A stretch of DNA of 64,000 nucleotides from Chlamydiales bacterium. GTDB taxonomy: Bacteria > Chlamydiota > Chlamydiia > Chlamydiales > JAAKFR01. The stretch spans positions 6,856 through 70,855 of the forward strand of contig JAJACG010000004.1 in NCBI GenBank assembly GCA_022601635.1, given 5' to 3'. Of this stretch, positions 1 through 60,754 are shown piece after piece. Below the pieces are notes generated by a model, which made no database searches, was not told where the DNA came from, and was given only the letters and a program-made list of their open reading frames with translations. Numbering within the stretch: the stretch's first letter is position 1; each line of letters opens with the position of its first letter. Both the position numbers and the translations under genes were made by a program.

Positions 1-773
1 GAACAGGCAAGCTCCACAAATTCGCGCACAGAGTGCTGCTGACCTGTTGCTACAACATAGTCATCCGGCTCATCTTGTTGCAAAATCATCCACTGCATCC
101 GCACAAAATCCCGCGTATGACCCCAGTCACGCAACGCATTCAAATTACCCAGCATCAAGCGCTCTTGCTGCCCATGATAAATCGCAGCCAGCGCTTTTGT
201 AATCTTGCGAGTCACAAAATGCTCACCCCGCTTGGGTGACTCATGGTTAAATAGAATCCCATTGCAGGCAAAAAGGCCATACGCCTCACGATAATTCCTC
301 ACCGTCCAATAGCTGTAAAGCTTTGCAACACCATAAGGAGAGCGAGGATAAAAAGGTGTCTGCTCTGTCTGAGGAACCTCCTGCACCTTCCCATAAAGCT
401 CAGATGTCGACGCTTGATAAAACTTGGTGGGCAAATCAAGCAATCTCACCAAATCCAAAAGCCTCATTGTCCCCATTGCATTCACATCGGCAGTGTAAAG
501 CGGATTTTCAAATGAGACACCCACATCACTTTGCGCTGCCAAGTTGTAGATTTCATCGGGCTCACATTTTTTTACGATGCTCAAAAGCGAGTTTGAGTCG
601 GTCAAATCACCGAGGTGAAGAGTGATAGAGGGAAGTAGTGCCTCCAATCTGCTGGTATTTGGAGTGGAGCTGCGCCGCTTGATACCGTGCACCTCATATC
701 CTTTTTCTAGAAGAAGTTCTGCAAGATAGGAGCCATCTTGACCTGTGATTCCTGTGATGAGCGCTTTTTTCAT
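1..773 (-). CDS. gmd: GDP-mannose 4,6-dehydratase (N-terminal ~257 codons; the 3' end lies beyond the window start)
   Basis: Absent from the ORF track because it runs off the window. My minus-strand translation from ATG at 773: [36 protein letters not shown]...[16 protein letters not shown]...[33 protein letters not shown]...[17 protein letters not shown]. It shows the Rossmann GxxGxxG motif, the YxxxK motif and the NHESPxRG signature of Gmd. Confidence 0.85.
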
Positions 774-2755: not shown

Positions 2756-3504
2756 CATCGATTGCCATTAGCAGTTTCAAGGGTGGTACAGCAAAGACAT
2801 CGACAACTCTGCATATTGGTGATGCACTTTCGCGCTACCATAAGAAGCGTGTTTTGCTGATTGACCTTGATGCGCAAGCCAATTTAACCGCGGGTCTTGG
2901 TTTTGATCCTGATGAATGTGACAGTTTAGCTGCGGTATTGCAGGGCTCTAAAGAGATTGACCAGGTGATCCAAAAAACAGACAATCCCCGTCTTGATTTG
3001 ATTCCAGCGGATACCTGGTTAGAGCGTGTGGAAGTTTCTGGTGCTTTGGCAGCTGATCGCTATTCTCATGAGCGCTTGAAGAAAATTTTGGATAGTTTGG
3101 ATTATGACTATGTTTTGGTGGATACGCCTCCTTCACTCTGTTGGTTGACGGAGTCTGCCTTGATTGGTGCAAAACATGCCTTGATTTGTGCGACTGCTGA
3201 GTTCTATAGTGTGAAAGGATTGGAGCGGCTGGCAGAATTCATCGGCAGCATCTCCCATAGACATCCGCTGAATGTCTTAGGGGTGGCTCTCTCTTTTTGG
3301 AACGTGCGGGGGAAAAACAATGCGGCATTTCTGGACCTCGTGGAAGCTACGTTTCCGAAGAAGATCCTCTCTTCTAAGGTACGGCGCGATATTAGCGTCT
3401 CTGAAGCGGCTATCTATGGGAAGCCGGTATTTGAATCTGCTCCCTCGAGCCGAGCGGCCGAGGATTATGTCGCCCTTACAAATGAAATGCTAAGTAGGTT
3501 GTAG
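2752..3504 (+). CDS. ParA/Soj-family partition ATPase
   Basis: Deviant Walker [33 protein letters not shown] overlap with the thrS stop. Confidence 0.85.
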
Positions 3505-3506
3505 AG

Positions 3507-4262
3507 ATGGTGAAATTAAGCTCAATATTGCAGCAGAGATTTAAGAAGAAAGAAAAGGCGAAGATGGCCTCATTGGCTGAAAAGAGTAGCTCAGGAGATT
3601 TAGCTGCTTTTTCTGGAGTCTTCCAAGTCAATGATATTTCAGCCAAAGAGCGTGCCGATTTGCGCGATCTTTTGGAGAAGTATGAGGATGCAACAAGTGA
3701 TACAGCTGAGGACCTGCAGCAGCTGAGTCAGATCACTTGTGAGGTCAAAGCAATTAACAATCAAGCGGCTATATTACATGGCGAGCGCATTAAAAGGGCG
3801 CAAACGCTTTTGAAGAAGTATAAAGAGGGTGCATTTACAGCTTGGCTATTGACTACATATGGCAATCGTCAAACGCCCTATAATTTTCTCCAATATTTTG
3901 AATTCCATTCCAAAATCCCCAAGGCTTTGCATGGCAAGATGGAAGAGATGCCAAGGCAGGCGGTCTATACGCTTGCGAGCCGAGAGGGAGAGATTGAGAA
4001 AAAGGAGGAGATGGTCCGCAACTACAGTGGACAGACGAAGCAGGAGATGATCTTGGAGATTCGCACTGCATTTCCTTTGGGTGAGAAGGATGGGAGACGT
4101 GAGAATATACCAGAGATGGGGATCAAAGCGCTAAAACGTGTTTTGTCTCAGCTGGAAAGACCTGATGTGCACTTTACTGAGGATCAGAAGGAGCGCCTCG
4201 CTGAACTATTGAATAAAATTGAGGAAAAATCATGCAAGCAACAGGAACAAAACCAATGTTAG
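3507..4262 (+). CDS. pGP6-D / CT583-like protein (possible ParB-like partner of the ParA)
   Basis: The central region AILHGERIKRAQTLL...FTAWLLTTYGNRQTPYNFLQYFEF...PRQAVYTLASREG resembles, from memory, the chlamydial plasmid protein pGP6-D family. It starts 3 nt after the parA stop. Confidence 0.55.
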   Translation: MVKLSSILQQRFKKKEKAKMASLAEKSSSGDLAAFSGVFQVNDISAKERADLRDLLEKYEDATSDTAEDLQQLSQITCEVKAINNQAAILHGERIKRAQTLLKKYKEGAFTAWLLTTYGNRQTPYNFLQYFEFHSKIPKALHGKMEEMPRQAVYTLASREGEIEKKEEMVRNYSGQTKQEMILEIRTAFPLGEKDGRRENIPEMGIKALKRVLSQLERPDVHFTEDQKERLAELLNKIEEKSCKQQEQNQC

Positions 4263-4780
4263 ATGATAAGACTGTGATGCTTTTCGAAGGGAATTTGAAG
4301 CGCATCTTTGCGATGAAGATCACTCGCTCTACTTTTCGTGAGCTACAAAATGTGATTCTTTCATGCGTTAATCAGAACCAAGAGATGGCAAACTTTCTCT
4401 TTGAAACATTGATGACAGGTCAGATAAAGCCAGGAACTGTCAATGAGAAGCATCAAGAGGTTTTGGAGCAGTGCATCACGCTATTCACCATTCCTGCCCG
4501 TTTGGCAAAAGAGGTGTTTGAGCGCGGTGAGTTCATCAATATCATCACAAGCGATATGGTGACACAAGGTGAGGAGTGCGCCTTTTTGAACCGTGTACGA
4601 CGCATTGATGGTGAGGAGTTCACCTTCCTTTCTGATCCGATGAATACATTGAATCTTCTGCAGCACTTTTCAGCGCGACTACCTGAGCTGATGAAAAATG
4701 CGAAGGGTAAAGAGGAGCTGGACAAGCACAAAAAAGAGCTTGCTTTGATCGGTGAGCGCATCAAGCAGATGGCGCTATGA
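4232..4780 (+). CDS. conserved chlamydial hypothetical protein, CT584-like (182 aa)
   Basis: Size and position (thrS-parA-pGP6D-like-X) match my recollection of C. trachomatis CT581-CT584. LFEGNLKRIF...FRELQNV N-terminus. An alternative start at 4256 would reduce the overlap with the upstream gene. Confidence 0.45.
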   Translation: MQATGTKPMLDDKTVMLFEGNLKRIFAMKITRSTFRELQNVILSCVNQNQEMANFLFETLMTGQIKPGTVNEKHQEVLEQCITLFTIPARLAKEVFERGEFINIITSDMVTQGEECAFLNRVRRIDGEEFTFLSDPMNTLNLLQHFSARLPELMKNAKGKEELDKHKKELALIGERIKQMAL

Positions 4781-4929
4781 TTGGATCTTGGGAGCTTATC
4801 GTCATCATGATCGTGGTGCTTGTGCTTTTTGGAGGCAAGAAGCTGCCTGAGTTTGCCAAGAATTTGGGCAAGGGCATGCGCGCATTTAAAAAGGCATCGC
4901 AGGGCATCGAGGAAGATGAAGAGAAGTGA
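4777..4929 (+). CDS. tatA: twin-arginine translocase subunit TatA/E (50 aa)
   Basis: Below the ORF-track size cut-off. My translation: MIGSWELIVIMIVVLVLFGGKKLPEFAKNLGKGMRAFKKASQGIEEDEEK. This is the canonical TatA pattern of a TM helix, FG hinge and amphipathic helix. ATGA overlap with the upstream stop. Confidence 0.8.
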   Translation: MIGSWELIVIMIVVLVLFGGKKLPEFAKNLGKGMRAFKKASQGIEEDEEK

Positions 4930-5626
4930 GTTCTGGGCTCATGTAGCAGAGCTAAGAACAACGCTCCTATCGCTGGTTTTTCTGGTGGTCACAACTTTTG
5001 TGGCCACCTTCTTTTTTCACCAAAACATTTTAGATCTACTTCTAGCTCCGTTAGATCATACAAGCTACATCCAACTCAGTCCTATCGAAGGCTTCTTGGT
5101 GGCACTAAAACTCTCACTTTGCACAGCACTTCTAATTTCAGCCCCCTTTGCTTTACTCATTCTTTGGAAGTTCATCTCACCAGCTCTTTACAGCCGTGAA
5201 AAAAGAGCCTTTTTCCTGCTCTTACCGCTGACAATTCTCTTTCTATCTATGGGTATTGGTTTTGCTTATAAATTTACTCTGCCAGTTGTGATGCGCTTTT
5301 TAAGCGGCTTTACAATTGGAGAACCACTTTGGGCGTTGGCTCCGACGATCAACTTTGTATTGTCGCTATTGTTGGCGCATGCGCTTTGTTTTGAGTTATT
5401 TGCTCTTCTCTTTGTTTTGGTGCATTTTGGTTTGGTTAGGGCTGAGCATTTGGCGAGTGGTCGGCGTTATGTTGTGGTGGGATTATTTATATTAGCGGCG
5501 ATATTTACCCCTCCGGATGTTATTTCCCAGCTTCTACTGGTTTGTCCGCTTTGGATTCTCTACGAGACGATCAACCTTTATGCGAAAATCAGAGTTTCTG
5601 CTAAGCTACATGAGCATGACGGGTAG
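4916..5626 (+). CDS. tatC: twin-arginine translocase subunit TatC
   Basis: Starts at the internal ATG (MKRSEFWAHVAELRTTLL...), 14 nt inside tatA. Six predicted TM segments with a TatC-like pattern (P.E.F....K.S......SAP......W.F..P.LY..E...). Confidence 0.85.
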   Translation: MKRSEFWAHVAELRTTLLSLVFLVVTTFVATFFFHQNILDLLLAPLDHTSYIQLSPIEGFLVALKLSLCTALLISAPFALLILWKFISPALYSREKRAFFLLLPLTILFLSMGIGFAYKFTLPVVMRFLSGFTIGEPLWALAPTINFVLSLLLAHALCFELFALLFVLVHFGLVRAEHLASGRRYVVVGLFILAAIFTPPDVISQLLLVCPLWILYETINLYAKIRVSAKLHEHDG

Positions 5627-6155
5627 AGTATTTTGGATTACAGCGCTTGCAGGAGGTGGAAAGACGACGCTTGCCAATGCGCTTGGAAAAAGGCTCAAAA
5701 CCCCTCTTCATCTTGATGGCGATGCTCTTCGCAAAGCATTGAATAACTACGACTATTCTCTTGAAGGACGAATGGCTTTAGCAATGAACTATGCTAGGCT
5801 GTGTCATCTCTTTTCTAAGCAAGGCTTTGATGTTATTTGCGCAACGATCTCAATGTTTGACGAGCCAAGAGCTTGGATGAGAAATAACATTCCAAACTAC
5901 TTTGAAATTTATCTCAAAGTAGAGGCGGATGAATTAAAGAGGCGCAATCAGAAGAGGTTGTATAGCGAAGGAAGCTCTGTGGCTGGGGTAGATATTCCGA
6001 TTGAGCTTCCCAAAAGCCCCGATCTTGTGATAGAAAATAATGGCACAAAACCAATTGAAACATTCGTTGAGGATATTTTGAAATGCAGCAAGGCGACTTC
6101 ACCACACTCGCAAAAGAGTATAAAAATAGAACAGGCTACTCCGATACAGTCTTAG
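5610..6155 (+). CDS. APS-kinase-fold P-loop kinase (CysC-like; candidate cytidine diphosphoramidate 3'-kinase, Cj1415-like)
   Basis: From the internal ATG: MSMTGRVFWITALAGGGKTTLANALGKRL...LDGDALRKALN...FDVICATISMF...YLKVEADELKRRNQKRLY. This is the APS kinase pattern (GxSGxGKST, LDGDxxR). Context is given in the findings. Confidence 0.75.
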   Translation: MSMTGRVFWITALAGGGKTTLANALGKRLKTPLHLDGDALRKALNNYDYSLEGRMALAMNYARLCHLFSKQGFDVICATISMFDEPRAWMRNNIPNYFEIYLKVEADELKRRNQKRLYSEGSSVAGVDIPIELPKSPDLVIENNGTKPIETFVEDILKCSKATSPHSQKSIKIEQATPIQS

Positions 6156-6826
6156 ACTATCTATGCAGCAAAATTCAACCCAACTCTGTTGCAGATGTCG
6201 GTGCTGGAACAGGCAAATTGACTGAGGGATTGATCCAACTAGGCCTTAAGGGATTTGCAGTTGAGCCTAATCAGGCGATGCGTGAAGAGGGAGCTGAAAT
6301 TGTTGGAAATGATCACTTTGTTTGGCAAGAGGGCTCAGGCGAAAAAACTGGTTTGTCAGATCAATCTGTGAATTGGGTATTGATGGCTTCGTCTTTTCAC
6401 TGGACAGATCAAGAAAAAGCCTTACAGGAGTTTGCGCGTATTTTGAGACCGGGTGGTTTTTTTACGGCGATATGGAACCCTCGCGATGTTGAAAAAAATG
6501 AACTTCATCAGACCATTGAGAGAAAAATTGAATCTCTGATCCCAGATCTAAAAAGGGTCTCATCTGGGGCAAAGGTAGGCAATATTGAAGATGTTTTAAC
6601 TCGTCAAAAACTCTTTGGCAATCTTATCTACATGGAAGGTATGCATGAAGTGCAGATGGATCAGGAGCGCTATTTGGGAGCTTGGCGCTCAGTCAATGAT
6701 ATTCAGGCGCAAGCGGGCCCAGATCGTTTTGCTGAAATTCTGGACTTTGTCAAAGAGATAACAGATTCTCTACCCTCTATTACCGTCCCCTATAAGACAC
6801 GAGCATGGACAGTACAAAAACTGTAA
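6083..6826 (+). CDS. class I SAM-dependent methyltransferase (Cj1419/Cj1420-like position)
   Basis: Motif I VADVGAGTGKLT, then post-I FAVEPNQAM, and LRPGGFF. Overlaps the kinase gene by 73 nt. Confidence 0.8.
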   Translation: MQQGDFTTLAKEYKNRTGYSDTVLDYLCSKIQPNSVADVGAGTGKLTEGLIQLGLKGFAVEPNQAMREEGAEIVGNDHFVWQEGSGEKTGLSDQSVNWVLMASSFHWTDQEKALQEFARILRPGGFFTAIWNPRDVEKNELHQTIERKIESLIPDLKRVSSGAKVGNIEDVLTRQKLFGNLIYMEGMHEVQMDQERYLGAWRSVNDIQAQAGPDRFAEILDFVKEITDSLPSITVPYKTRAWTVQKL

Positions 6827-9105
6827 AACCGATCTCTTTTGAAAGCAAAGCAAAGACGCTTGCAACTGTGGCATCGCGCATTCAAACAGCTCGCGTGCTG
6901 CCGCAGCTGCGCTTTTCACTTAAAGAGCTCGAAAAAGTCCAACCAATCGAGTTGATTGAGAAAAAGGGCTGGTTAGACCAGCCGCTGGTGATCCGCAGCA
7001 GTGCTGTTATTGAGGATTCTGAAAGTGAATCTATGGCAGGTCACTTTGTCTCCGTTCTAAACGTTGTTGGCTTTAATGCTGTCAAAAGCGGCCTCAAGCA
7101 AGTAGCCAACTCTCTTGCTGATCCTACAGATGAAATTTTTGTGCAACCAATGCTCACAAATGTCAAAATCTGCGGTGTTGCCTTTTCTAGAACGCCTAAT
7201 ACTGGCGCTCCATATATCCAAATTAACTATGATGACTCCGGCAGTACTACCTCTGTCACTGATGGATCTACCAATCAACTGCTCTCTTATCTCTACTATA
7301 GAAAAGCTCAAGCAGCTCCTCCAGATCCGTTGGACCGAGTTGTAAAGCTGCTTTTCGAACTTGAGGAACTCTTTTCAAATGACTCTATCGATATTGAGTT
7401 TGCGATTAATGATGAGGATCAGCTCTATCTCTTTCAGGTAAGACCTCTTTTGGTCAAGTCCAAGCCTATGGAGCAGCTCCCTCTGGACTCTATCTCAAAG
7501 CGGATAGAGAAGTTATCAATGCCGCACCCCAATCTTCATGGCTCTCGCTCCTTTTTTGGGATAATGCCTGATTGGAATCCTGCGGAGATTATTGGGCTTC
7601 GTCCCAATACCCTTTCACTATCTCTCTATAAAGAGTTGATCACCGATCAGATATGGGCCTATCAGCGTAACAACTACGGCTATTTGAATCTGCGAAGTTT
7701 TCCTCTATTAATTGACTTGTGTGGTCTCCCCTACATTGATGTACGTGTCAGCTTTAACTCTTTTATTCCACAATCTTTGTGTCCAAAAATGGCAAAGAAG
7801 CTGGTCGAGCACTATCTAGATCGATTGGAGAAAAACCCTCATCTGCATGACAAGATTGAGTTTGAGGTTGTTTTTTCCTGCTATACGGTAGATCTACCTC
7901 AGAGGGTAGCTGAACGCGGTTTCTCTAAGGATGAGGTGGAGCAGATCACGCAAAGCTTGCGGGAGCTGACCAATGGTATCATCGATGGGGAGACGGGCCT
8001 TTGGCGCCAAGATATTGAGAAGATCGAGAAGCTTGAAGAGCAGTACCAGGCGATTGTAGATAGCCCTTTGGATCGCTTGTCGAAGATCTACTGGTTGATG
8101 GAAAACTGCAAAAGATATGGCACTCTTCCCTTTGCAGGTTTAGCCAGAGCTGGCTTCATTGCAGTGGAACTTTTGAAGTCGTTGGTGCGTGAAGGGGTGC
8201 TATCGGAAGATGACTATCAGAATTTTCTAGCCTCTTTGGACACTGTAAGTGGTCAGATGGTCAACGATCTTGCTACAACAGATCGTGCCTCATTTTTAGA
8301 TCGATATGGACATCTTAGGCCGGGAACCTATGATATCTTATCACCGACCTATGCAGAAACGCCTGATCTATACTTTGACTGGAAGCATAAGCATCCTCCG
8401 AGAGAGCATCAGGAGTTTCATCTCTCTCTTAGGCAGTTGGAGGAGATTGAATCTTTACTTAAAAGCCATGGAATCACACACAATGTATTGACCTTCTTCT
8501 CTTTTTTAAAAACAGCAATTGAGGGTCGAGAGCACTCCAAATTTGTCTTTACTAAGACATTAAGCAAGACATTGAGCTATATAGAAGAACTTGGTGAGGA
8601 GCATGGCTTTGCAAAAGAGCAGCTGCAGCATATGGATGTGGGTGTAATCAAGCAGCTTTACTCTAGCTCAACTGATATCGCAGAGACAATGGGCGCCTCG
8701 ATTGATGAAGGCTGTAAGAAAGCGCATCTAATGAAGTTAATTCAGCTTCCCCCACTGATTACGAAAACAAAGCAGCTCTATGGCTTCTTCTTACCAACAG
8801 ATGAGCCCAACTTTATTACTTTAAAGAGAGGTCGTGGTGTTGTAAAAGGCGCAGAGTCTAAAGAGATTGAGGGAGCAGTAGTCTGTATTCCGAGTGCTGA
8901 TCCCGGCTATGACTGGATTTTTTCTCATAAAATAGCAGCCTTAATTACTATGTACGGGGGGATGAATTCGCATATGGCGATTCGTGCAGCCGAGCTTTCA
9001 ATTCCAGCTGTGATCGGGGCTGGTGAGACACTTTATGAGCGCTGGTCTTCAGCTAAGGAGCTTGAGGTAGATTGTCTCAATAGACGTGTGGTAAAGTTGT
9101 GTTGA
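6805..9105 (+). CDS. PEP-synthase-like ATP-grasp plus phosphohistidine swivel-domain kinase (candidate L-glutamine kinase, Cj1418-like), 766 aa
   Basis: N-terminal PPDK_N-type motif LVIRSSAVIEDSESESMAGHFVSVLNV. C-terminal PEP-utilizer mobile domain GGMNSHMAIRAAELSIPAVIGAG. Confidence 0.7.
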   Translation: MDSTKTVKPISFESKAKTLATVASRIQTARVLPQLRFSLKELEKVQPIELIEKKGWLDQPLVIRSSAVIEDSESESMAGHFVSVLNVVGFNAVKSGLKQVANSLADPTDEIFVQPMLTNVKICGVAFSRTPNTGAPYIQINYDDSGSTTSVTDGSTNQLLSYLYYRKAQAAPPDPLDRVVKLLFELEELFSNDSIDIEFAINDEDQLYLFQVRPLLVKSKPMEQLPLDSISKRIEKLSMPHPNLHGSRSFFGIMPDWNPAEIIGLRPNTLSLSLYKELITDQIWAYQRNNYGYLNLRSFPLLIDLCGLPYIDVRVSFNSFIPQSLCPKMAKKLVEHYLDRLEKNPHLHDKIEFEVVFSCYTVDLPQRVAERGFSKDEVEQITQSLRELTNGIIDGETGLWRQDIEKIEKLEEQYQAIVDSPLDRLSKIYWLMENCKRYGTLPFAGLARAGFIAVELLKSLVREGVLSEDDYQNFLASLDTVSGQMVNDLATTDRASFLDRYGHLRPGTYDILSPTYAETPDLYFDWKHKHPPREHQEFHLSLRQLEEIESLLKSHGITHNVLTFFSFLKTAIEGREHSKFVFTKTLSKTLSYIEELGEEHGFAKEQLQHMDVGVIKQLYSSSTDIAETMGASIDEGCKKAHLMKLIQLPPLITKTKQLYGFFLPTDEPNFITLKRGRGVVKGAESKEIEGAVVCIPSADPGYDWIFSHKIAALITMYGGMNSHMAIRAAELSIPAVIGAGETLYERWSSAKELEVDCLNRRVVKLC

Positions 9106-9710
9106 TTGGTGTGACGCAGCGAGTCGAATTTCATCCCCAAAGTGAGGAAATACGAGATGCTTTGGATCAAAGGTGGGCGCAGTTTTTATTTGCATGCGAC
9201 CTACCATTTGTGCTGCTTCCTAATCATAAATCAGGATTCGCACTTGCCAAAAGGTGTAGCGGCTTTTTGCTAACGGGTGGTAATTCGATTGGTGAGGCGC
9301 TTATGCGCGATCAATTTGAGATCAAGATCTTAGAATACGCTCTTGAGAGGGCATTGCCACTGCTTGGAGTTTGTCGCGGTATGCAGCTGATTCAGCACTT
9401 TTTTGGTGTACCCTTACAGAAAATTGAGGGGCATGTAAGGAGTAGGCACTTGAATGAGCGTAATAGTTTTCATGATTTTGGGAGTTATGAGACAGTTGAG
9501 CCGTTAGAGATTTTGGAGCGTGCAGAAGATGGTATTGTGGAAGCAATCTGGCACACTAAAAAGCCTCTTATTGGTATGATGTGGCACCCAGAAAGGGAGG
9601 AATCTTTTGATGATCGAGACAGACAGCTATTCAAAGGCTATTATTCTAGCGGCGGGTCGCGGATCGAGGATGGGCTCTTTGACAGAAGATCGGCCCAAGT
9701 GTTTGGTTGA
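9099..9710 (+). CDS. class I glutamine amidotransferase / peptidase C26-like hydrolase (candidate gamma-glutamyl-CDP-amidate hydrolase, Cj1417-like)
   Basis: GTG start overlapping the upstream stop. Nucleophile-elbow LGVCRGMQLI and C-terminal MMWHPE (His-Glu of the triad). Confidence 0.75.
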   Translation: MLIGVTQRVEFHPQSEEIRDALDQRWAQFLFACDLPFVLLPNHKSGFALAKRCSGFLLTGGNSIGEALMRDQFEIKILEYALERALPLLGVCRGMQLIQHFFGVPLQKIEGHVRSRHLNERNSFHDFGSYETVEPLEILERAEDGIVEAIWHTKKPLIGMMWHPEREESFDDRDRQLFKGYYSSGGSRIEDGLFDRRSAQVFG

Positions 9711-10350
9711 GCTTCGTCAAAAGACGCTTCTTCAATGGCAGACAGAGGCGCTTAAAGAGGCTGGAATCTCAGATATTTATATCGTTTGTGGCTATAAAAA
9801 AGAGTGTTTTCCTCAAGAGGGCTACCGCTTTTTTGAGAATCCCAATTGGGAGACGACTCAGATGGTTCAATCGCTAATGGAGGCGGATGAGCTACTGAGA
9901 AAAGAGCCTGTTATCGTTTCTTATTCTGATATTGTCTACCACAGTGATATTGTTTCGAAGTTAATGCAATCTTCGGCAGATATTGCGATTTCCTATGATA
10001 GCTGTTGGCAGGAGCTATGGAAAAGACGTTTTTCTGACCCCCTATCAGATGCAGAAACTTTCAAACAGAGTGATGGTTTACTAAGAGAGATTGGCGCAGA
10101 GCCAAAGAGTGTGAGCGAGGTTGAGGGGCAATATATGGGGCTGTTGAAGATCACTCCTTCAGGTTGGTCGAGGCTTAAAGAGATGGATGGAGTGCGCGAC
10201 CTTTCTGTGACTGAAATTTTGCAGAAATTGATTGATCATCAAGAGGAGATAGCAGCAGTTGAGGTTGCGGGTCGTTGGTGTGAGGTTGATTCTGCTGCTG
10301 ATTTAGAGCTCTATGAACAGGGTCCAAATGAACAACATGAGTGGGTATAG
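9607..10350 (+). CDS. NTP-transferase-fold nucleotidyltransferase (candidate CTP:phosphoglutamine cytidylyltransferase, Cj1416-like)
   Basis: KAIILAAGRGSRMGSLTEDRPKCLVEL signature of sugar/phospho-ligand nucleotidyltransferases. 247 aa. 104-nt overlap with the upstream ORF. Confidence 0.8.
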   Translation: MMIETDSYSKAIILAAGRGSRMGSLTEDRPKCLVELRQKTLLQWQTEALKEAGISDIYIVCGYKKECFPQEGYRFFENPNWETTQMVQSLMEADELLRKEPVIVSYSDIVYHSDIVSKLMQSSADIAISYDSCWQELWKRRFSDPLSDAETFKQSDGLLREIGAEPKSVSEVEGQYMGLLKITPSGWSRLKEMDGVRDLSVTEILQKLIDHQEEIAAVEVAGRWCEVDSAADLELYEQGPNEQHEWV

Positions 10351-11589
10351 ATGTTTAGAAAATTGAAACAAGCGCGACGAGAAAAGAGAAAAAACAAGCT
10401 CTATATTGCCAATCCAACTCTTCAGTCAGAGGGAAGCTGTCGATTCATTCCCAATCTTTTTTCTCCAAGAGAAATAAATCGATTGGTTGCTGACCACAAG
10501 CGTATCCTTATTTATGGTCAAAAGGAATTTACAGAAAAAGCGGCGAAGTGGGCACAAGTAGAGGGAAAAGAGATCACTGTTTTCAATGAGCCGACTCAAC
10601 TTTACTACCGCACTGTTCAATGGCCCTTTGATCTGGTGATTTTGCTAACTACAAAGGAGCATTTTTTTGTCTTCTTACGATCGGTGATTCATGGCAGAAA
10701 CTATCGGGGAGAATTAGCAATCCCCGCAACCCAAGAAGGTAGCTGTTCCTTGGAAAGGATCGAATCAAAAATGCCAATCTACCTTTTATGCTTTGCTTGC
10801 TGCGGCGCCAATCGCCTTATGTTTGGCTTCAGACATTTAATGCGTACAATTGATTGGGAGCAGAAACCACACTTAACGACAAGTCATAATGTAAAGCTGA
10901 CAGACAACTTTAAGAATTGGAATGAGTTTGCGGAGGCCCAGAGGTGGTATAATTATCACCTGGACTACTGTCAATGGACTTCCACAAATGATTGGATTCA
11001 TCCTAAACATGTTGAAATTGAGGGATGTCGCAGTGTAGTTTTATGTCGTGATCCTCGCGATGTGGTCAACTCATTTTTCTGGCATACCTGGGCTGACTAT
11101 GGCTATGATCCCAACCATCTACTCAATATTATCAGAGGCCTTTTCCACTCTACGCGCATTGATTTTACCAATCAGTGGCCTTCTGCAAAAGAGAAGTGTG
11201 AGATGATGCTCTATGCTCAAGAATCGCTTAACTGTACAGTGATCCGCTTTGAGGATATGCATAAGAGTGATGAAGGAGCGTTAAAAAAGTTGATGACGGA
11301 GTTGGGGCTCTATCCTCATCCTTTTGGAATGCAAGAGCAAGATTTTGTTCACGCTGCTCTTTTGGGCAGCTTTGACCATCAGATTGGAGATCGTCGTAAA
11401 AGAGGAGAGGGCACTTCTAGCAAAGAGCTCAGATTTATTTCTGCATGTCGCAAGGGAGTCGTGGGTGATTGGCGCTCGAGTTTTACAAAAGAGGCATGTG
11501 ATCTTTTCAAGGAGCAAACAGGTGATGCGCTCATAAAACTTGGCTATGAAACTTCGATGGATTGGGAGGCCAATGCTAAAGTTCATTGA
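10351..11589 (+). CDS. sulfotransferase-fold protein, paralog 1 (412 aa)
   Basis: 3'-phosphate-binding-type motif VVLCRDPRDVVNSFFWH and the eukaryote-type SULT C-terminal motif CRKGVVGDWRSSFT (compare RKGxxGDWKxxFT). Has an extra ~130-aa N-terminal domain. Confidence 0.7.
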   Translation: MFRKLKQARREKRKNKLYIANPTLQSEGSCRFIPNLFSPREINRLVADHKRILIYGQKEFTEKAAKWAQVEGKEITVFNEPTQLYYRTVQWPFDLVILLTTKEHFFVFLRSVIHGRNYRGELAIPATQEGSCSLERIESKMPIYLLCFACCGANRLMFGFRHLMRTIDWEQKPHLTTSHNVKLTDNFKNWNEFAEAQRWYNYHLDYCQWTSTNDWIHPKHVEIEGCRSVVLCRDPRDVVNSFFWHTWADYGYDPNHLLNIIRGLFHSTRIDFTNQWPSAKEKCEMMLYAQESLNCTVIRFEDMHKSDEGALKKLMTELGLYPHPFGMQEQDFVHAALLGSFDHQIGDRRKRGEGTSSKELRFISACRKGVVGDWRSSFTKEACDLFKEQTGDALIKLGYETSMDWEANAKVH

Positions 11590-12766
11590 AAAAAAGAAAA
11601 AAAAGAAGCAACAAGAGGCTCTTTTTGTTGCTTCAAAACCGACACACTCCTTTGATCCTGGTAGCTGCCTCTTCATCCCAAATCTCTTTTGCAAAGAGAG
11701 ATTGGTTCGCCTCGCAAAAAGCCACGCAAACGTACTACTTTTTGGAGAGCCTCAATTTACAACTCCAGCGCAAAATTGGCTCCCAACAGCGAAGGCTATT
11801 ACTTCTATTGAAGATCTCTATGATCGTGAGCTCGACTTTAACTTCGATTTGATCGTTGTCCTAACGCGAACGAAGAATTACCTGCCCTTCTTACGCGCTT
11901 TGATTCATGTACGCGAATACAGAAAATGCATTGCCACTCCAGGAAAAGTTGAGTGGTCGATGAAAATTGAAGATATCGAACCCAAAGAGCCTATTTTCCT
12001 CTGTGCATATCCCTGTGCAGGAACTAACCGTCTTATGTTTGGTTTCCGCCATCTTATGAATTCTATCCAGTGGGAACAAAAACCACATATCGAGCTCTCT
12101 CATAATGCTCGATTGATAAAAAATCGTTTTTCATGGAGCGAATCTGATGAGGTTCAACGCTGGCATCTATACTCGCTAGACTACTGCCAATGGTTGATTT
12201 CCCATCTGTGGTTTGATCTAGAGAAACTGCAGAGCTCAGATAGTAAAATTGTCATATTGATGCGCGATCCACGCGATATCTTAAACTCTCTTTTTTGGCG
12301 TTCTGATAATTGTGATATTTTGGAATTCATCAATGGTCATGATATATCTACTCATATCAACTATACAGCAAAGCTTCCATCAGCAAAAGAGATCTGTAAC
12401 ACCTATCTTCGGGCTCTGGAAATGAAAAACAGTGTCATCATTCGCTTCGAAGACATGCATAACTGCGATCTAGAAGCTCTTAAAGGTTTAATGTCTGATC
12501 TTAAGCTCTTCCCTCATCCCTTTGGCATGAGTGAAGAGGGTTTTGTTAAGGCAGCTTTTTTGGGCAGCTTCCAATATCAAAATGGTGGGAAAAGAAGCCA
12601 CGACTCTACAAAAATACGAGGCCAAATGAATGTCTCCTGTCGCAAAGGTAGCGTTGGTGATTGGCGTTCAAGTTTCACAAAAGAGGCATGCGATCTTTTC
12701 AAAGAGCAAACAGGAGATGCTCTGATTCAGCTTGGATATGAAACATCTATGGATTGGTCGTCTTAG
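11573..12766 (+). CDS. sulfotransferase-fold protein, paralog 2
   Basis: Collinear with paralog 1 (ILMRDPRDILNSLFW, CRKGSVGDWRSSFT). The start is chosen at ATG 11573 (MLKFIEKKKKKKQQEALF), which aligns with the paralog 1 N-terminus. The track start is 11540. Confidence 0.7.
   Translation: MLKFIEKKKKKKQQEALFVASKPTHSFDPGSCLFIPNLFCKERLVRLAKSHANVLLFGEPQFTTPAQNWLPTAKAITSIEDLYDRELDFNFDLIVVLTRTKNYLPFLRALIHVREYRKCIATPGKVEWSMKIEDIEPKEPIFLCAYPCAGTNRLMFGFRHLMNSIQWEQKPHIELSHNARLIKNRFSWSESDEVQRWHLYSLDYCQWLISHLWFDLEKLQSSDSKIVILMRDPRDILNSLFWRSDNCDILEFINGHDISTHINYTAKLPSAKEICNTYLRALEMKNSVIIRFEDMHNCDLEALKGLMSDLKLFPHPFGMSEEGFVKAAFLGSFQYQNGGKRSHDSTKIRGQMNVSCRKGSVGDWRSSFTKEACDLFKEQTGDALIQLGYETSMDWSS
11589..11604 (+). 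repeat. A7-G-A8 homopolymeric tract at the paralog 1 stop / paralog 2 codons 6-11
   Basis: Read directly: tgAAAAAAAGAAAAAAAAGaag. It encodes the KKKKKK run of paralog 2. Confidence 0.9.
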
Positions 12767-12932
12767 CAGCTTTCTGCAACGCCTTCCAGTGGCCACGTAC
12801 ACCGTTAGCACCATCCCAGTAAGCAAAAAAAGCCCATATACCCCAAACAATCAAGATAATATAGGTAATACGTAAAAACCAAGGCACACGATTCTCATGC
12901 GAAGGCGGAATCTCTTCTTCACTCATCATCAT
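12747..12932 (-). CDS. small membrane protein resembling the N-terminal (FixP_N) domain of cbb3 subunit CcoP
   Basis: MMMSEEEIPPSHENRVPWFLRITYIILIVWGIWAFFAYW resembles the CcoP N-terminus (...E.DNPLPRWW + TM helix). No haem domain. 14-nt overlap with the upstream micro-ORF. Confidence 0.5.
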   Translation of the reverse strand: MMMSEEEIPPSHENRVPWFLRITYIILIVWGIWAFFAYWDGANGVRGHWKALQKAAKTTNP

Positions 12933-13062
12933 CCTCAAACAGTTGGTACTTCGCCTCCTCATCTATCCCCAATCTCCCCTTCAAACTCAAGAAGATAAAG
13001 ACTATCAAGGCACTCCCAAATAGAGCAAAAAGCAGCGAGTAGTGCAAAATAAAACCGGTCAT
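12919..13062 (-). CDS. CcoS/FixS-like micro-protein (47 aa)
   Basis: Not in the track (<60 aa). My translation: MTGFILHYSLLFALFGSALIVFIFLSLKGRLGIDEEAKYQLFEDDDE. It has one TM helix plus an acidic tail, like CcoS (…GQFDDLE…ILxDDD). ATGA overlap with the ccoO-like stop. Confidence 0.5.
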   Translation of the reverse strand: MTGFILHYSLLFALFGSALIVFIFLSLKGRLGIDEEAKYQLFEDDDE

Positions 13063-14180
13063 TTCTCATCCAAGATTTTGATCGTTTGAACCGGATCCTT
13101 CCCAAGCCACCAAGCTTGTGTTGGAGGCGTAATCCTTGTGCCCTTCGTCATCAAGTATTGAAAGATGGCCTCAAACTTATAGTTGGGAACACCAAAGGGA
13201 TTTTCAGCAGAGCCGCGCGGATCATTGTCAAAGAAGTGACCATAGGAGGGCATAATACTACCCCGGCTCTCCGATTTAGGAGACCAGAAATGCGACATAT
13301 GCCAATCTCGATGCGGCCGCTTAATCCCCACACGCGAAAGATCAGGTCCAATACGCCTTGTCCCAGGAAACGTCACCTCTTGGTAGACATATTCATTTGC
13401 GGAGGAGGGCGGCGCTGGGTAGTCTGCAGAACCGTTGAGCACCACATCCTGCACAAGAGTGCGCGTCTGATCTGTATGGCAGTACCAACATCCCTCAGCA
13501 CGAAAGATGTTTTCTCCCATCGTAATCAAACTCTTTCGCGACAAAAAACGCTGTTTGCCCTTTTTCAGCTCCTTCAGATTCTTGATCGGCTCCCCCATCT
13601 CATCATAGAGCCAGTAGTGATCCCCTCGCACAAAACGCTTTGAAACACGGTACTCCTTTGGATTATTTACGTAGAGCACGCCCTCAGAAGTGTCATAGGG
13701 TACCGTTCCATTGATCTGAAAGTTTTCAGAAGCCCAGGGCTCCACAACACCATCGCTCTGCACAATGGCAAACGCCTCAGTACTCTTCGGATCAAAGAGC
13801 TCTAGAACCTCACTGCCTTCCTTTTTTTTCAAAAGAAGCACTCGCGAAGTCAGCTTCAACTCCTTGTCCTCTTTGCGCGTCACAAAGGATTCCAGCTCGG
13901 GCGTTGTCTCAATCGTCACCGCTTCACTCTCTTGGTAAGCCTGCAATGTTTTGCCCTCTTGCAAATGGTAGACATATTGCAAGCCTACACCGCCAGGATT
14001 GGAGGTACTCACATAAACATTGGGGTCTGAAACTTCATACATCTGTACTTGATAGCTACTCGATGGCTGCGTCCAGCTAGGATCCACATAGTGCGGCGTA
14101 ATCAAAGTAACAGCAATTGCCGTCGAAAAAAGCAGTAAGATCGCTACAGCGGTCCAAATTGCTGACTTCTCAAGATTCAA
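13059..14180 (-). CDS. ccoO: cbb3-type cytochrome c oxidase monohaem subunit CcoO/FixO with a large N-terminal insertion
   Basis: TM anchor, then GENIFRAEGCWYCHTDQTR...FPGTRRIGPDLSRVGIKRPHRDWHMSHFWSPKSESRGSIMPSY (CcoO signature CxxCH...GPDL.RVG...WH..H...P). About 170 extra residues lie between the anchor and the haem domain. Confidence 0.8.
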   Translation of the reverse strand: MNLEKSAIWTAVAILLLFSTAIAVTLITPHYVDPSWTQPSSSYQVQMYEVSDPNVYVSTSNPGGVGLQYVYHLQEGKTLQAYQESEAVTIETTPELESFVTRKEDKELKLTSRVLLLKKKEGSEVLELFDPKSTEAFAIVQSDGVVEPWASENFQINGTVPYDTSEGVLYVNNPKEYRVSKRFVRGDHYWLYDEMGEPIKNLKELKKGKQRFLSRKSLITMGENIFRAEGCWYCHTDQTRTLVQDVVLNGSADYPAPPSSANEYVYQEVTFPGTRRIGPDLSRVGIKRPHRDWHMSHFWSPKSESRGSIMPSYGHFFDNDPRGSAENPFGVPNYKFEAIFQYLMTKGTRITPPTQAWWLGKDPVQTIKILDEK

Positions 14181-15573
14181 TTGTATGCCTCCTCAAAATC
14201 AGCGTATTACAGATATTATAGACAAACAACGCGCAGCCTATAAAGATCAAAACACCGCTCATCATTCGCCAAAACCACCACCACCACATTCGCTGTACCG
14301 TCTCCAAAAAGGGAAAAGAACTCAGATTCTCATGGTAGTGCGCATAGCTGCTGCCACTGCCCCAGCTCGCCCACTCAAGCCCCTGCTTAAAGCCGCCAAT
14401 CCACAAGACAACAAACATCAAAACAGAGCCTGTAAATGCCAAAACAAAGTGCCATTCAGCCAGCTTGTCTGACCAAAGTGGCCGCTTTGCAATTTTGGGA
14501 ATCACAAAGTAAGTGCCGCCAATAGCAAAAAAAGTAAAGGTTCCAAGTAGCGCCATATGCGCATGGCCAATGATCCAATCAGTTTTCGAAATCACCTCAT
14601 TCACATTGCGCAATGACTGCAGAGATCCCTGCAGACAGACGATCAGGTAGAAGGCAACGCCCACTGTCAAAAAGCGAAGCGCCACACTCTCACTATAGGC
14701 AGACCAATTCTGCTTCAACGTGCCAAAGAAGTTCACAATCACCGTCCAGACTGGAATGATCAACCACATCGAAAAGATGATACTAGTTGTCTGTAACCAT
14801 TGAGACTCTGGTCCATGCAGCATGTGATGCGCACCGATCCACGCATAGACAAAAGCAATCGACCAAAATCCGACCATCGAAAGTGTGTGGCTGTAAAGCG
14901 GACGGTTCACCAATTTGGGGATGAAGTAGTAAGCAGTAGCAAGACCAAGAGGTGTGAAAATCAAACCTACAAGATTATGGACAAAGAAGAAACTGGTGTT
15001 GACGCGTGAGATACCCATCGGCATCCAGACAATGAGGAAATTGCCGACAAAGTAGACAATTGTGGTCCACAGAAGCGTTGCCATCACATACCAGAGCGAA
15101 ACATACATCTTCTTATGCTTACGTCTAAAAATGGTCATGAAGAGATTGACCGAGAAGAGTGCCCAAGCAACAAAGACCAGAGCTTTGATAGGAATGAAGC
15201 GCAACAGCATCATCGGCAGCTCTGCATATTCCCAACCAAAGTTTGTGCCAAAGGGAAAGGAGAAGACACCCAAAATAAGAGAGGGCCACCAAATCCAACT
15301 TGTCAAAGTGGCTAACTTATAGCTCCAAAGAGGAACACCGCAAAGCCTTGGAACGAAGTAATAGACAAGCGCCATGTCCGCAGATAAGAGCCACAAGAGG
15401 GTAACAGTTCCGACATGAACAGGACGAATGCGCCCAAAGGTAACATATTCACCAGAAAAGTAGTCGGGAATTAAGAAGCCGTTGATCGAAATGAAGATAG
15501 CAACCAAGAGTCCCATGAGCAGAAAGCCAAGCGCAGGGTAGAGCATCTGTTTTACAGGGCGGTCATCGTACAT
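14170..15573 (-). CDS. ccoN: cbb3-type cytochrome c oxidase subunit I CcoN
   Basis: 467 aa, 12+ TM helices, haem/Cu His ligand contexts (WIGAHHMLHG, IIGHAHMALLG, HVGTVTLLW). Confidence 0.85.
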   Translation of the reverse strand: MYDDRPVKQMLYPALGFLLMGLLVAIFISINGFLIPDYFSGEYVTFGRIRPVHVGTVTLLWLLSADMALVYYFVPRLCGVPLWSYKLATLTSWIWWPSLILGVFSFPFGTNFGWEYAELPMMLLRFIPIKALVFVAWALFSVNLFMTIFRRKHKKMYVSLWYVMATLLWTTIVYFVGNFLIVWMPMGISRVNTSFFFVHNLVGLIFTPLGLATAYYFIPKLVNRPLYSHTLSMVGFWSIAFVYAWIGAHHMLHGPESQWLQTTSIIFSMWLIIPVWTVIVNFFGTLKQNWSAYSESVALRFLTVGVAFYLIVCLQGSLQSLRNVNEVISKTDWIIGHAHMALLGTFTFFAIGGTYFVIPKIAKRPLWSDKLAEWHFVLAFTGSVLMFVVLWIGGFKQGLEWASWGSGSSYAHYHENLSSFPFLETVQRMWWWWFWRMMSGVLIFIGCALFVYNICNTLILRRHTIES

Positions 15574-59483: not shown

Positions 59484-59832
59484 GGCACCCATTATAGACA
59501 TGTAGAAGCAGCTTGTCACTATATCGTTTATATATAAGAGCAAGCTGCTCCTTATCTCCGATCAAGTAGACGTTTTCAGCCTTACCAACCAAAGAGTTAA
59601 GGTTAAATTTTCCCTTTCCCTTGACCAATGGAAGTGTCACGCCAGCAGCAGCGCCTTGGCCAAGTAGAATAAGGCTCACCCCTGCTGAAACACTAGCTGG
59701 GATCATCGAAAGTCGTGAATTTAGAACACCTTGAGCTCGAATGATACTCAAAATACCAACAAGGGTGAGTGAGAAGCTACAGACAAGTGCTGTGGAAACT
59801 GTGATTGGATGTCGAACAGAGAGTAGGGGCAT
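59326..59832 (-). CDS. hypothetical membrane protein (N-terminal two hydrophobic segments)
   Basis: 168-aa ORF. Its last ~52 codons overlap the rsmH 5' end in another frame, so the true 3' end and functional status are uncertain. Confidence 0.35.
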   Translation of the reverse strand: MPLLSVRHPITVSTALVCSFSLTLVGILSIIRAQGVLNSRLSMIPASVSAGVSLILLGQGAAAGVTLPLVKGKGKFNLNSLVGKAENVYLIGDKEQLALIYKRYSDKLLLHVYNGCHAQECLTGRDYIVFCHPDGELSGWNARTWGACRGDLGAAPRVKELFWDRQGS

Positions 59833-59911
59833 GCAACTATTATATTGATATAGATTTAATATTGAAGCAAATACCGTCAGACACTTGTCACTTTTCTCTC
59901 TGAGTGATAAG

Positions 59912-60358: not shown

Positions 60359-60360
60359 TT

Positions 60361-60753: not shown

Positions 60754-60754
60754 A

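Follow-up and report, generated by a model that had tools for sequence, protein, structure and literature searches.

What would an environmental chlamydia make with genes that place an APS-kinase-fold protein and two sulfotransferase-fold proteins beside relatives of enzymes that synthesize the phosphoramidate donor in Campylobacter? The locus occupies positions 5610-12766 of the plus strand of the window, the 64,000-nucleotide stretch of DNA that was analysed. [quoted passage not shown]

Operon layout and chlamydial surroundings

The seven open reading frames are co-directional, and neighbours overlap or abut, as the first-pass annotation had described; its family assignments agree with Pfam matches with E-values of 1e-10 to 1e-21. 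The operon starts with the APS-kinase-like kinase, which is followed by the SAM methyltransferase, the 766-residue PPDK_N/swivel-histidine protein, the class-I GATase, the NTP transferase, ST1, and ST2. The features discussed here are:

1-773, minus strand: partial GDP-mannose-dehydratase-like epimerase/dehydratase (gmd-like), from Pfam families of genes on the longer scaffold L001
5610-6155, plus strand: APS-kinase-fold kinase, 181 aa (Pfam APS_kinase, E 7e-21); predicted cytidine diphosphoramidate 3'-kinase (Cj1415-like)
6083-6826, plus strand: class I SAM methyltransferase, 247 aa (Methyltransf_11, E 3e-15)
6805-9105, plus strand: L-glutamine kinase-type enzyme, 766 aa, with ATP-grasp PPDK_N and phosphohistidine swivel domains (Pfam PPDK_N/PEP-utilizers)
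9099-9710, plus strand: class I GATase/C26 hydrolase, 203 aa (best NCBIfam NF045546); predicted gamma-glutamyl-CDP-amidate hydrolase
9607-10350, plus strand: NTP transferase, 247 aa (NTP_transf_3, E 6e-20); predicted CTP:phosphoglutamine cytidylyltransferase
10351-11589, plus strand: ST1, sulfotransferase-fold protein, 412 aa (Sulfotransfer_1, E 2e-10)
11540-12766, plus strand: ST2, sulfotransferase-fold protein, 408 aa (Sulfotransfer_1, E 5e-10)

The kinase gene starts at an internal ATG of the open reading frame 5517-6155, and its first 17 nt overlap the end of tatC. The kinase is missing from one public gene call, despite its match to the profile NF004041. Another gene call starts the NTP transferase 24 codons late, which would remove its nucleotide loop, and ST2 is 397 residues long in the public gene call, with a start at 11573.

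The source is an uncultured environmental chlamydia. The contig carries a CT584 homologue (E 1e-45) and an ATP/ADP translocase, in keeping with the earlier chlamydial assignment, and CT584-like and UPF0137 chlamydial markers are located at most 2 kb upstream of the cluster on the same strand. The GC3 of the cluster is 41.6%, compared to 51.9 ± 3.9% for the remaining genes of the window, which suggests that the operon was acquired horizontally by the environmental chlamydia. The low GC3 could also be taken as a sign of contamination, of a chimeric assembly with a chlamydial contig, or of a recent import that is inactive, as could the finding that the closest homologues of the glutamine kinase are only about 55% identical to it, with none of the named ones being chlamydial. 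However, the junction of tatC, kinase, methyltransferase, and glutamine kinase genes is also present in an ENA scaffold and, from a different run, in an independent Logan assembly. Therefore, the gene arrangement is not an assembly artefact. Together with the overlap of tatC by the kinase start, the nearby chlamydial markers, and the intact reading frames, all with catalytic motifs, this leaves an origin by contamination or an inactive import exceedingly improbable.

Predicted synthesis of a phosphoramidate donor

The synthesis of the donor has been attributed to four enzymes on the basis of homology and conserved synteny. Their correspondence to the proteins Cj1415-Cj1420 is derived from curated profiles, database names, and synteny, not from pairwise alignments. 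In C. jejuni NCTC 11168, Cj1415 is the CDP-amidate kinase, Cj1416 the CTP:phosphoglutamine cytidylyltransferase, Cj1417 the hydrolase, Cj1418 the L-glutamine kinase, Cj1419 and Cj1420 methyltransferases, and Cj1421 and Cj1422 the MeOPN transferases. The gene order cj1419c, cj1418c, cj1417c, cj1416c represents methyltransferase, glutamine kinase, hydrolase, and NTP transferase, which is the order found in the chlamydial operon.

The kinase scores 161.7 bits on the NF004041 profile (E 1.7e-47), above the cutoff of 127, but only 75.9 bits on the CysC equivalog TIGR00455, whose cutoff is 138.7; it matches E. coli CysC with 32 bits. In the kinase tree it groups with kinases that are adjacent or fused to glutamine kinases, apart from E. 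coli CysC and a CysNC fusion. The score on TIGR00455 and the position in the tree argue against a true CysC and favour the Cj1415-type kinase proposed in the first reading. The kinase contains an LDGD motif at 5712-5723. The 766-residue protein reaches 933.5 bits on NF004508/PRK05849 (cutoff 501) and at most 58 bits on any model of a PEP synthase or Rph, which rules out a PEP synthase or a rifampicin phosphotransferase and upholds its previous identification as a glutamine kinase. Its homologues are labelled "glutamine kinase" by JGI, and some of them contain an APS-kinase domain within the same protein. The histidine of its swivel domain, His723, lies in NSHMAIR (8965-8985) and does not vary in the alignment.

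The GATase had been proposed to be of the Cj1417 type. Its best model is indeed that of gamma-glutamyl-CDP-amidate hydrolase, NF045546, with 115.4 bits against 41 for the next, PuuD, although the score is below the equivalog cutoff of 250. The sequences GVCRG (9366-9380) and WHPE (9582-9593) are the motifs with the cysteine, histidine, and glutamate of class-I GATases. No curated model exists for the NTP transferase, for which the nearest solved structure is that of LicC, a CTP:phosphocholine cytidylyltransferase (58 bits); its nucleotide loop AAGRGSRM is located at 9649-9672. The methyltransferase has the SAM motif DVGAGTG (6194-6214) and is predicted to O-methylate the phosphoramidate. The C. 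jejuni capsule reportedly did not change in knock-outs of the two methyltransferases, Cj1419 and Cj1420 (PMC11800397); therefore, the methylation role is unproven even in that organism.

The default NCBI and Pfam names "adenylyl-sulfate kinase", "phosphoenolpyruvate synthase", and "sulfotransferase" would fit a simpler module with a CysC kinase and with ST1 and ST2 as sulfotransferases of some substrate; the remaining four genes would then belong to unrelated metabolism as a PEP synthase-like enzyme, a PuuD-like enzyme, a sugar-phosphate NTP transferase, and a generic methyltransferase. However, such a module is largely refuted by the profile scores of the kinase and the glutamine kinase, and by the conservation of the five-gene cassette as a unit across phyla, including kinase-glutamine kinase fusions. 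Moreover, the window contains no CysD, CysN, or ATP sulfurylase (sat); the absence of the last had been noted in the first reading. Plain sulfation is thus highly improbable.

In the preferred phosphoramidate pathway, the glutamine kinase would form L-glutamine phosphate from ATP and L-glutamine, and the NTP transferase would convert L-glutamine phosphate and CTP to CDP-L-glutamine, from which the GATase-type hydrolase would remove glutamate to form cytidine diphosphoramidate. The APS-kinase-like enzyme would then phosphorylate the 3'-hydroxyl to yield 3'-phospho-CDP-amidate, which is structurally analogous to PAPS. The methyltransferase would supply an O-methyl group. Cj1415-Cj1418 of C. jejuni make CDP-phosphoramidate 3'-phosphate, the likely donor, and the same donor is expected here (PMC11800397). 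These reactions have been demonstrated for the C. jejuni enzymes only.

Sulfotransferase-fold proteins ST1 and ST2

The two ST genes, which the first-pass annotation left unexplained, appear to belong to the pathway. Their products are paralogues with 49% sequence identity and are members of a small family. ST1 is composed of an N-terminal Rossmann-like domain, an extra of about 135 residues relative to PAPS sulfotransferases, and a C-terminal sulfotransferase domain. The AF2 model of ST1 (pLDDT 83) has PAPS sulfotransferases as its top Foldseek matches, and the fold is matched with a probability of 1.0 to PAP- or PAPS-bound sulfotransferases. ST1 keeps both 3'-phosphate-binding motifs, RDPRDVVNS (11047-11073) and RKGVVGDW (11449-11472), and its PSB loop is CCGANR (10798-10815). 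Its residue 213 is an asparagine (codon AAT) at the position of a near-invariant histidine of the family. The corresponding motifs of ST2 are PCAGTNR (12011-12031), SHLW (12200-12211) with the histidine, RDPRDILNS, and RKGSVGDW. Judged by its sequence, ST1 is a divergent paralogue that has lost the conserved histidine, and ST2, which has the family-consensus motifs and looks catalytically complete, is the likelier active phosphoramidate transferase.

The pathway resembles that of PAPS (CysC/APS kinase and Sulfotransfer_1 enzymes such as SULT1A1, SULT2A1, and SULT7A1) both in the ST fold with its two 3'-phosphate-binding motifs and in its logic: a 5'-activated nucleotide group is 3'-phosphorylated by an APS-kinase fold and used by an ST-fold transferase. 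By contrast, the chlamydial donor is predicted to be a cytidine nucleotide, with phosphoramidate moved instead of sulfate. The lysine of the 5'-phosphosulfate (PSB) loop, which contacts the phosphosulfate, is absent from all 68 aligned members of the ST family, and 66 of the 68 have arginine in place of the adenine-stacking tryptophan of cytosolic sulfotransferases. ST1 and ST2 are probably phosphoramidate transferases that use 3'-phospho-CDP-amidate as a PAPS analogue: they would bind the 3'-phosphonucleotide donor, transfer the phosphoramidate to an acceptor hydroxyl, and release 3',5'-CDP.

The retained PAP-type motifs and the Pfam and structural matches to PAPS enzymes are points against phosphoramidate transfer. 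They would fit a division of labour in which the core makes the phosphoramidate donor, ST1 and ST2 sulfate the same glycan with PAPS, and the phosphoramidate transferase is encoded elsewhere. Moreover, homology of the ST proteins to a Campylobacter transferase has not been found; 20 look-ups of named clusters for the ST family brought up no Campylobacter protein, and ST1 and ST2 may therefore be unrelated to Cj1421 and Cj1422. However, the sole APS-kinase-fold gene falls into the glutamine-kinase-linked clade, sulfate-activating enzymes are absent from the surroundings, the phosphosulfate-contacting lysine is missing, and the operon contains no transferase candidate besides ST1 and ST2. Furthermore, all seven ST homologues examined (six ST1-family proteins found by search, and a Sulfotransfer_1 gene from the cluster around a close relative of the glutamine kinase) are located inside or beside clusters of kinase, methyltransferase, glutamine kinase, GATase, and NTP transferase, two of them between the GATase and NTP transferase genes. 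Generic metagenomic ST-domain proteins are linked to such clusters in one of about 77 loci, excluding the family's own locus, or in two if L131, with a kinase match of only 46 bits, is included. A point on the other side is that the available DNA of the short contigs L093 and L094, which carry two more distant full-length ST relatives, shows no core genes. Divided function is quite unlikely, and transfer of the phosphoramidate by the ST proteins is the reading followed below.

The acceptor and the distribution of the cassette

The acceptor would most likely be a surface glycan; it is a guess, because the operon contains no glycosyltransferase. The partial gmd-like gene had been noted as a hint of glycan genes nearby, and scaffold L001 indeed continues beyond the window edge with two GT4 glycosyltransferases and manC. 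The partial gene is the first of this divergent block, which may supply the acceptor glycan. However, the housekeeping genes thrS, parA-like, CT584-like, and tatAC stand between it and the operon, which also lacks export genes. Since the ST fold is found in enzymes for many small molecules and for proteins, and the N-terminal domain of the ST proteins has no assigned ligand, the acceptor in the same pathway might instead be a lipid, a small metabolite, or the side chain of a protein, with no decoration of the surface. This is unlikely: related clusters regularly occur in polysaccharide loci, surrounded by genes for sugar-nucleotide enzymes, GT2/GT4 glycosyltransferases, Wzm/Wzt, DegT aminotransferases, epimerases, and acyltransferases, and the sole characterised example acts on capsule sugars (PMC11800397).

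The pathway core is widespread in bacteria and not special to Campylobacter. The term "Campylobacter-type" used previously overstates its rarity, as the glutamine-kinase gene is present in at least 563 GTDB species genomes from many phyla. Among the best 80 of these loci, the hydrolase gene, which follows that of the glutamine kinase, is present in 75, the NTP transferase in 78, the methyltransferase in 65, and the kinase in 67 (separate in 21 and fused to the N-terminus of the glutamine kinase in 46). At least 13 of the 80, from different phyla, have the exact order of the chlamydial five-gene cassette. Sulfotransfer_3 genes flank 19 of the 80, and their products are related to the ST1/ST2 family (hhalign, 91% probability). 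Some clusters include CysQ-type 3',5'-bisphosphate nucleotidase genes, a further likeness to the PAPS pathway, which is expected if a PAP-like by-product needs removal.

The chlamydial operon shares with the C. jejuni MeOPN locus the four donor-building enzyme families and an accompanying methyltransferase, and the curated Cj1418- and Cj1417-type models are the best matches of its proteins. By contrast, its kinase is at the front of the operon instead of the end, it has one methyltransferase instead of two, its hydrolase is too divergent for the equivalog cutoff, and its putative transferases are sulfotransferase-fold proteins of about 400 residues for which a relation to Cj1421/Cj1422 is not demonstrable. 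No poly-G phase-variation tract was noticed in the operon, and its host is a chlamydia of the obligate intracellular type, whereas C. jejuni is an epsilonproteobacterium.

The same cassette, often in the same order and with recurrent ST-fold neighbours, occurs in uncharacterised loci of Planctomycetota, Nitrospinota, Elusimicrobiota, Acidobacteriota, Pseudomonas, Azospirillum, Chitinibacter, and others, and a MeOPN-like cluster has been reported on Borg elements (bioRxiv 10.1101/2024.11.05.622173). However, none of the best 80 GTDB loci is chlamydial, and the best of them reach only about 50-55% identity with the proteins of the chlamydial operon. In most of these 80, the ST-like proteins belong to other families, of the Sulfotransfer_3 type, and in many the kinase and the glutamine kinase are fused.

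Organization of the operon and assignment of its core enzymes

ORF calling places seven overlapping or abutting genes on the plus strand at 5610-12766 of the window, as the first-pass annotation had described.

Genes of the operon
5610-6155, plus strand: kin, APS-kinase-like kinase, 181 aa (Pfam APS_kinase)
6083-6826, plus strand: MT, SAM methyltransferase, 247 aa (Pfam Methyltransf_11)
6805-9105, plus strand: GlnK, glutamine kinase-type protein, 766 aa (Pfam PPDK_N and PEP-utilizers swivel domain)
9099-9710, plus strand: GAT, class-I GATase hydrolase, 203 aa (Pfam Peptidase_C26/GATase)
9607-10350, plus strand: NT, NTP transferase, 247 aa (Pfam NTP_transf_3)
10351-11589, plus strand: ST1, sulfotransferase-fold protein, 412 aa (Pfam Sulfotransfer_1)
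11540-12766, plus strand: ST2, sulfotransferase-fold protein, 408 aa (Pfam Sulfotransfer_1)

The operon extends a co-directional run of thrS, a parA-like gene, a UPF0137 gene, a CT584-like gene, tatA, and tatC, and the start of kin overlaps the 3' end of tatC. An ENA scaffold and a Logan contig, assembled independently, have the same gene order and junctions, and therefore an assembly chimera is ruled out. Scans for promoters and terminators in the region 4000-13500 found fewer sites than in shuffled controls and are thus uninformative. The chlamydial identity of the host is borne out by a 182-residue-long ORF at 4232-4780, which is homologous to CT584 and Cpn0803, both of solved structure (E 1.5e-45 and 4.7e-44), and by genes for UPF0137, DUF5399, and a TLC ATP/ADP translocase. 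The GC3 of the seven operon genes is 41.6%, compared with 51.9 +/- 3.9% for the 26 other genes of the window, and the closest relatives of the operon genes are non-chlamydial. The low GC3 together with the non-chlamydial relatives suggests that the operon was acquired horizontally.

It had been proposed that the operon encodes the synthesis of a phosphoramidate similar to the O-methyl-phosphoramidate (MeOPN) of Campylobacter jejuni, for which Cj1415-Cj1418 supply the donor. The 766-residue-long GlnK scores 933.5 bits against NF004508/PRK05849, which has a cutoff of 501, whereas all models of PEP synthase, PPDK, PigC, and rifampicin phosphotransferase give at most 58 bits. The swivel-domain His723 is invariant in an alignment of 18 sequences. 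GlnK has matches in over 7,400 database clusters; identity does not exceed about 55% even in the best of them, several of which carry the JGI name 'glutamine kinase'. The kinase passes NF004041, the model of which we take Cj1415 to be a member, with 161.7 bits (cutoff 127), and contains an LDGD motif and, as read from the translation, a P-loop. In a neighbour-joining tree, it is positioned inside a clade of kinases that are linked or fused to GlnK, far from the branch that unites Escherichia coli CysC with a CysNC fusion. Thus, the two proteins whose placement among PEP synthases and true CysC enzymes had been named as evidence against the phosphoramidate reading fall outside both groups, which supports that reading.

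The best model for GAT is that of the gamma-glutamyl-CDP-amidate hydrolase, NF045546, with 115 bits compared with 41 bits for the next model, PuuD; the Cys and His-x-Glu motifs are kept as GVCRG and WHPE. The assignment of GAT as a Cj1417-type hydrolase therefore holds at the level of the best model, but the score is under the equivalog cutoff of 250. No specific curated model matched NT, which belongs to the generic family NTP_transf_3 and has LicC, a CTP:phosphocholine cytidylyltransferase, as its nearest solved structure. The signatures of NT (AAGRGSRM) and MT (DVGAGTG) are intact. Sequence searches of the PDB with the proteins from the window retrieved only distant PEP synthases, PuuD, LicC, and APS kinases. 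With two of four profile tests passed outright and the other two assignments based on best hit and synteny, the operon core is assigned by sequence to the known MeOPN-donor pathway.

A plain sulfation module, in which the kinase would act as CysC, is rejected. The kinase scores 75.9 bits against the CysC equivalog TIGR00455, under its cutoff of 138.7, and E. coli CysC matches it with 32 bits. The window contains no homologue of CysD or CysN, the sole match being LepA through its GTPase domain. The gene calls for the window include neither an ATP-sulfurylase nor a PAPS-reductase family, in agreement with the previous statement that ATP sulfurylase is missing from it.

Distribution of the donor cassette

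Relatives of GlnK are encoded in at least 563 GTDB genomes, and the ORFs of the best 80 of these loci were scanned with the proteins from the window.

Cassette genes near the GlnK gene in the best 80 of at least 563 GTDB loci
GAT: 75/80 loci, adjacent to GlnK
NT: 78/80 loci, conserved beside the hydrolase
MT: 65/80 loci
Kinase of the same clade, separate gene: 21/80 loci
Kinase of the same clade, fused to the N-terminus of GlnK: 46/80 loci

Some of these 80 loci, from unrelated phyla, show exactly the gene order of the window, kin-MT-GlnK-GAT-NT. In Acidobacteriota, Gemmatimonadota, and other phyla (L012, L016, L022-L024, and others; about 46 of the 80 loci in all), kinase and GlnK are fused into one ORF of about 980 aa. 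Such a fusion is a Rosetta-stone link between the enzymes that begin and complete donor synthesis. Neither Campylobacter, nor Chlamydiota, nor the genome of the window itself is represented among the best 80 of the at least 563 genomes. Judged by these homologues, the donor cassette is frequent in bacteria of many phyla, and the label 'Campylobacter-type' used in the first-pass annotation is misleading.

The phosphoramidate of Campylobacter is a rare group that is immunologically and phage-relevant. The literature regards MeOPN as peculiar to Campylobacter, and a 2022 review called the glutamine kinase C. jejuni-specific (PMC9561416). A MeOPN-like cluster on a Borg element has already been noted (bioRxiv 10.1101/2024.11.05.622173). 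Literature searches found no report of phosphoramidate decoration for the phylum Chlamydiota and no paper linking phosphoramidate, Cj1416, and chlamydia. The donor pathway is already known; the host phylum is new.

Several genes accompany the cassette in other genomes. Some GlnK clusters carry genes for CysQ-type 3',5'-bisphosphate nucleotidases, which fits a need for clearing a PAP-like by-product. The largest family without an assignment among the GlnK neighbours, with conserved proteins of about 385 aa, is found at 26 of the 80 loci (for example, L022 6198-7352) and contains the sulfotransferase-like motifs YRHPLDS and RLEDF. It has no match in Pfam or NCBIfam and was not counted as sulfotransferase-like, since its hhalign probability is below 1% despite the suggestive motifs; it is a further candidate partner of the pathway.

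In a Pseudomonas locus (L011), the gene at 8356-9903 looks by eye like that of a FlgL-type flagellar hook-associated protein, and GlnK-GAT-NT follow directly after it. Matching ORFs are present in four further loci, which probably include L025, L031, and L069. Loci of this type hint that phosphoramidate could be one of the modifications made by a flagellar glycosylation island. In L086 (1322-7866), kin-GlnK-GAT-NT is directly preceded by Wzm and a Wzt with the Wzt_C domain. By analogy to E. coli O9a, in which methyl phosphate is the chain-terminating cap, the phosphoramidate might cap an ABC-transporter-dependent O-antigen in L086.

Sulfotransferase-fold proteins as candidate transferases

The last two genes of the operon, for which the first-pass annotation had given no role in the pathway, encode paralogues that are 49% identical to each other and match Pfam Sulfotransfer_1 with E-values of 2e-10 (ST1) and 5e-10 (ST2). 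AlphaFold models ST1 (pLDDT 83) as two domains, of which the N-terminal one is Rossmann-like, and the best PDB matches of this model in Foldseek are sulfotransferases with bound PAP or PAPS, with a probability of 1.0. A word-indexed search recovered only 14-16 relatives of ST1 and ST2. With a full HMMER search, the family comprised 89 representative clusters at E <1e-30 and passed gradually into generic Sulfotransfer_1.

ST1 and ST2 share with PAPS-dependent sulfotransferases the fold and the motifs that bind the 3'-phosphate. RDPRDxxNS and RKGxVGDW do not vary within the family, and their counterparts in the alignment are the RxxxDxxxS motif and the RKG loop of SULT7A1. By contrast, the 5'-phosphosulfate loop PKSGTTW, which contains the catalytic Lys of PAPS-dependent enzymes, is replaced by P[C/F/G]AGTxR, and the three commonest residues at the position of the Lys, which account for 53 of the 68 aligned sequences, do not include Lys. 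The Trp that stacks on adenine in cytosolic sulfotransferases corresponds to Arg in 66 of the 68 members. This pattern of motifs would be expected of an enzyme that still grips a 3'-phosphonucleotide, but one differing in its 5' group and in its base.

About 20 residues upstream of the Arg of the 3'-phosphate-binding motif, 65 of the 68 members, including ST2, have a His that, by its spacing, would correspond to the catalytic-base His of SULT enzymes. ST1 contains Asn213 instead (codon AAT, 10987-10989), the sole Asn among the 68 sequences; its closest relative, P0121 (67% identical), keeps the His. ST1 also departs from the family in the 5'-phosphosulfate loop, and may be a catalytically altered paralogue. 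Because ST1 is without the conserved His and has a deviant loop, ST2 appears the better candidate for an active enzyme. The last approximately 45 codons of ST1 and ST2 (11440-11589 and 12620-12766) are near-identical, also at the DNA level, with the shared sequence SCRKGxVGDWRSSFTKEACDLFKEQTGDALIxLGYETSMDW, and identity over the rest of the two proteins drops to about 49%. The similarity of the 3' ends could be due to gene conversion or to very strong constraint.

The strongest evidence for a role of the sulfotransferase-fold proteins in the pathway is their genomic context. All seven homologues with retrievable context, six ST1-family proteins from the protein search and the product of a Sulfotransfer_1 gene that shares its cluster with a close relative of GlnK (L172), are encoded inside or beside a kin-MT-GlnK-GAT-NT cluster, two of them between GAT and NT. 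In a control set of about 77 metagenomic loci recovered by generic similarity to the sulfotransferase domain, with the family's own locus excluded, core genes are present in a single locus; L131, with a weak kinase match of 46 bits, would make a second. A second sulfotransferase-fold family (Pfam Sulfotransfer_3), related to that of ST1 and ST2 with an hhalign probability of 91%, flanks 19 of the 80 GTDB GlnK loci. Sulfotransferase-fold proteins are recurrent companions of the cassette, and CysQ-type nucleotidases occasional ones, which provides a concrete candidate for the transferase step.

With regard to the MeOPN transferases Cj1421/Cj1422 of C. jejuni, neither the protein searches with the ST family nor the names of 20 of its clusters, chosen for AT-rich members and members of about 600 aa, include a Campylobacter-named protein. 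A literature search found no paper mentioning both MeOPN and sulfotransferase. The candidate transferase family is apparently distinct and unreported.

Proposed pathway and surroundings of the operon

The biochemical roles of the enzymes encoded in the window are taken over from C. jejuni Cj1415-Cj1418, which convert L-Gln, ATP, and CTP to CDP-phosphoramidate 3'-phosphate (PMC11800397). By homology and synteny, the donor would be produced by the successive action of glutamine kinase, cytidylyltransferase, hydrolase, and 3'-kinase, resulting in 3'-phospho-CDP-amidate. The sulfotransferase-fold enzymes would move the phosphoramidate onto a hydroxyl of the acceptor, and the SAM methyltransferase would O-methylate it. 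The analogy between PAPS and 3'-phospho-CDP-amidate is clean. The final transfer and methylation steps of MeOPN synthesis in C. jejuni were still uncharacterised in 2025 (PMC11800397, PMC12409886); if the proposal is true, the sulfotransferase-fold proteins would be the last-step enzymes that the Campylobacter field has been missing.

The neighbours of related clusters include Wzm/Wzt, GT2/GT4, DegT aminotransferases, and epimerases, as parts of polysaccharide loci. A divergent gmd-like/GT4/GT4/manC block is located about 5 kb upstream of the operon, in line with the earlier suggestion that the partial gmd gene at the window edge hints at nearby glycan genes. Based on both contexts, our best guess for the acceptor is a surface glycan. 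The operon suggests that at least one environmental chlamydial lineage has gained the means of putting phosphoramidate on some cell component. We put at about even the chances that the sulfotransferase-fold proteins constitute a new class of phosphoramidate transferases, using 3'-phospho-CDP-amidate in place of PAPS, and that the pathway is a widespread glycan decoration of many phyla that extends into Chlamydiota and would give this chlamydia a P-N-bonded epitope on its surface. Everything past the family assignments is inferred computationally, and from one uncultured metagenomic lineage.

The operon is followed by a convergent respiratory block on the minus strand (13059-20700), which encodes the cbb3 oxidase subunits FixO and COX1, a 1091-residue-long multi-haem cytochrome c, cytochrome b, and a Rieske protein. 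This aerobic respiratory chain is richer than would be expected for a chlamydia. At 2752-4780, genes for a ParA-like ATPase, a pGP6-D-like UPF0137 protein, and the CT584-like protein are grouped on the chromosome beside thrS; the first two proteins resemble the products of chlamydial plasmid partition genes. The gene dnaA is located at 61002-62345 and the minimum of the cumulative GC skew at about 58-60 kb, and the region 58000-62345 probably includes the replication origin. The only Rfam matches in the whole window are two tRNAs. A TLC-family ATP/ADP translocase and a 431-residue-long Fic-domain protein, encoded at 45541-47091 and 52985-54280, are typical of a host-associated lifestyle.
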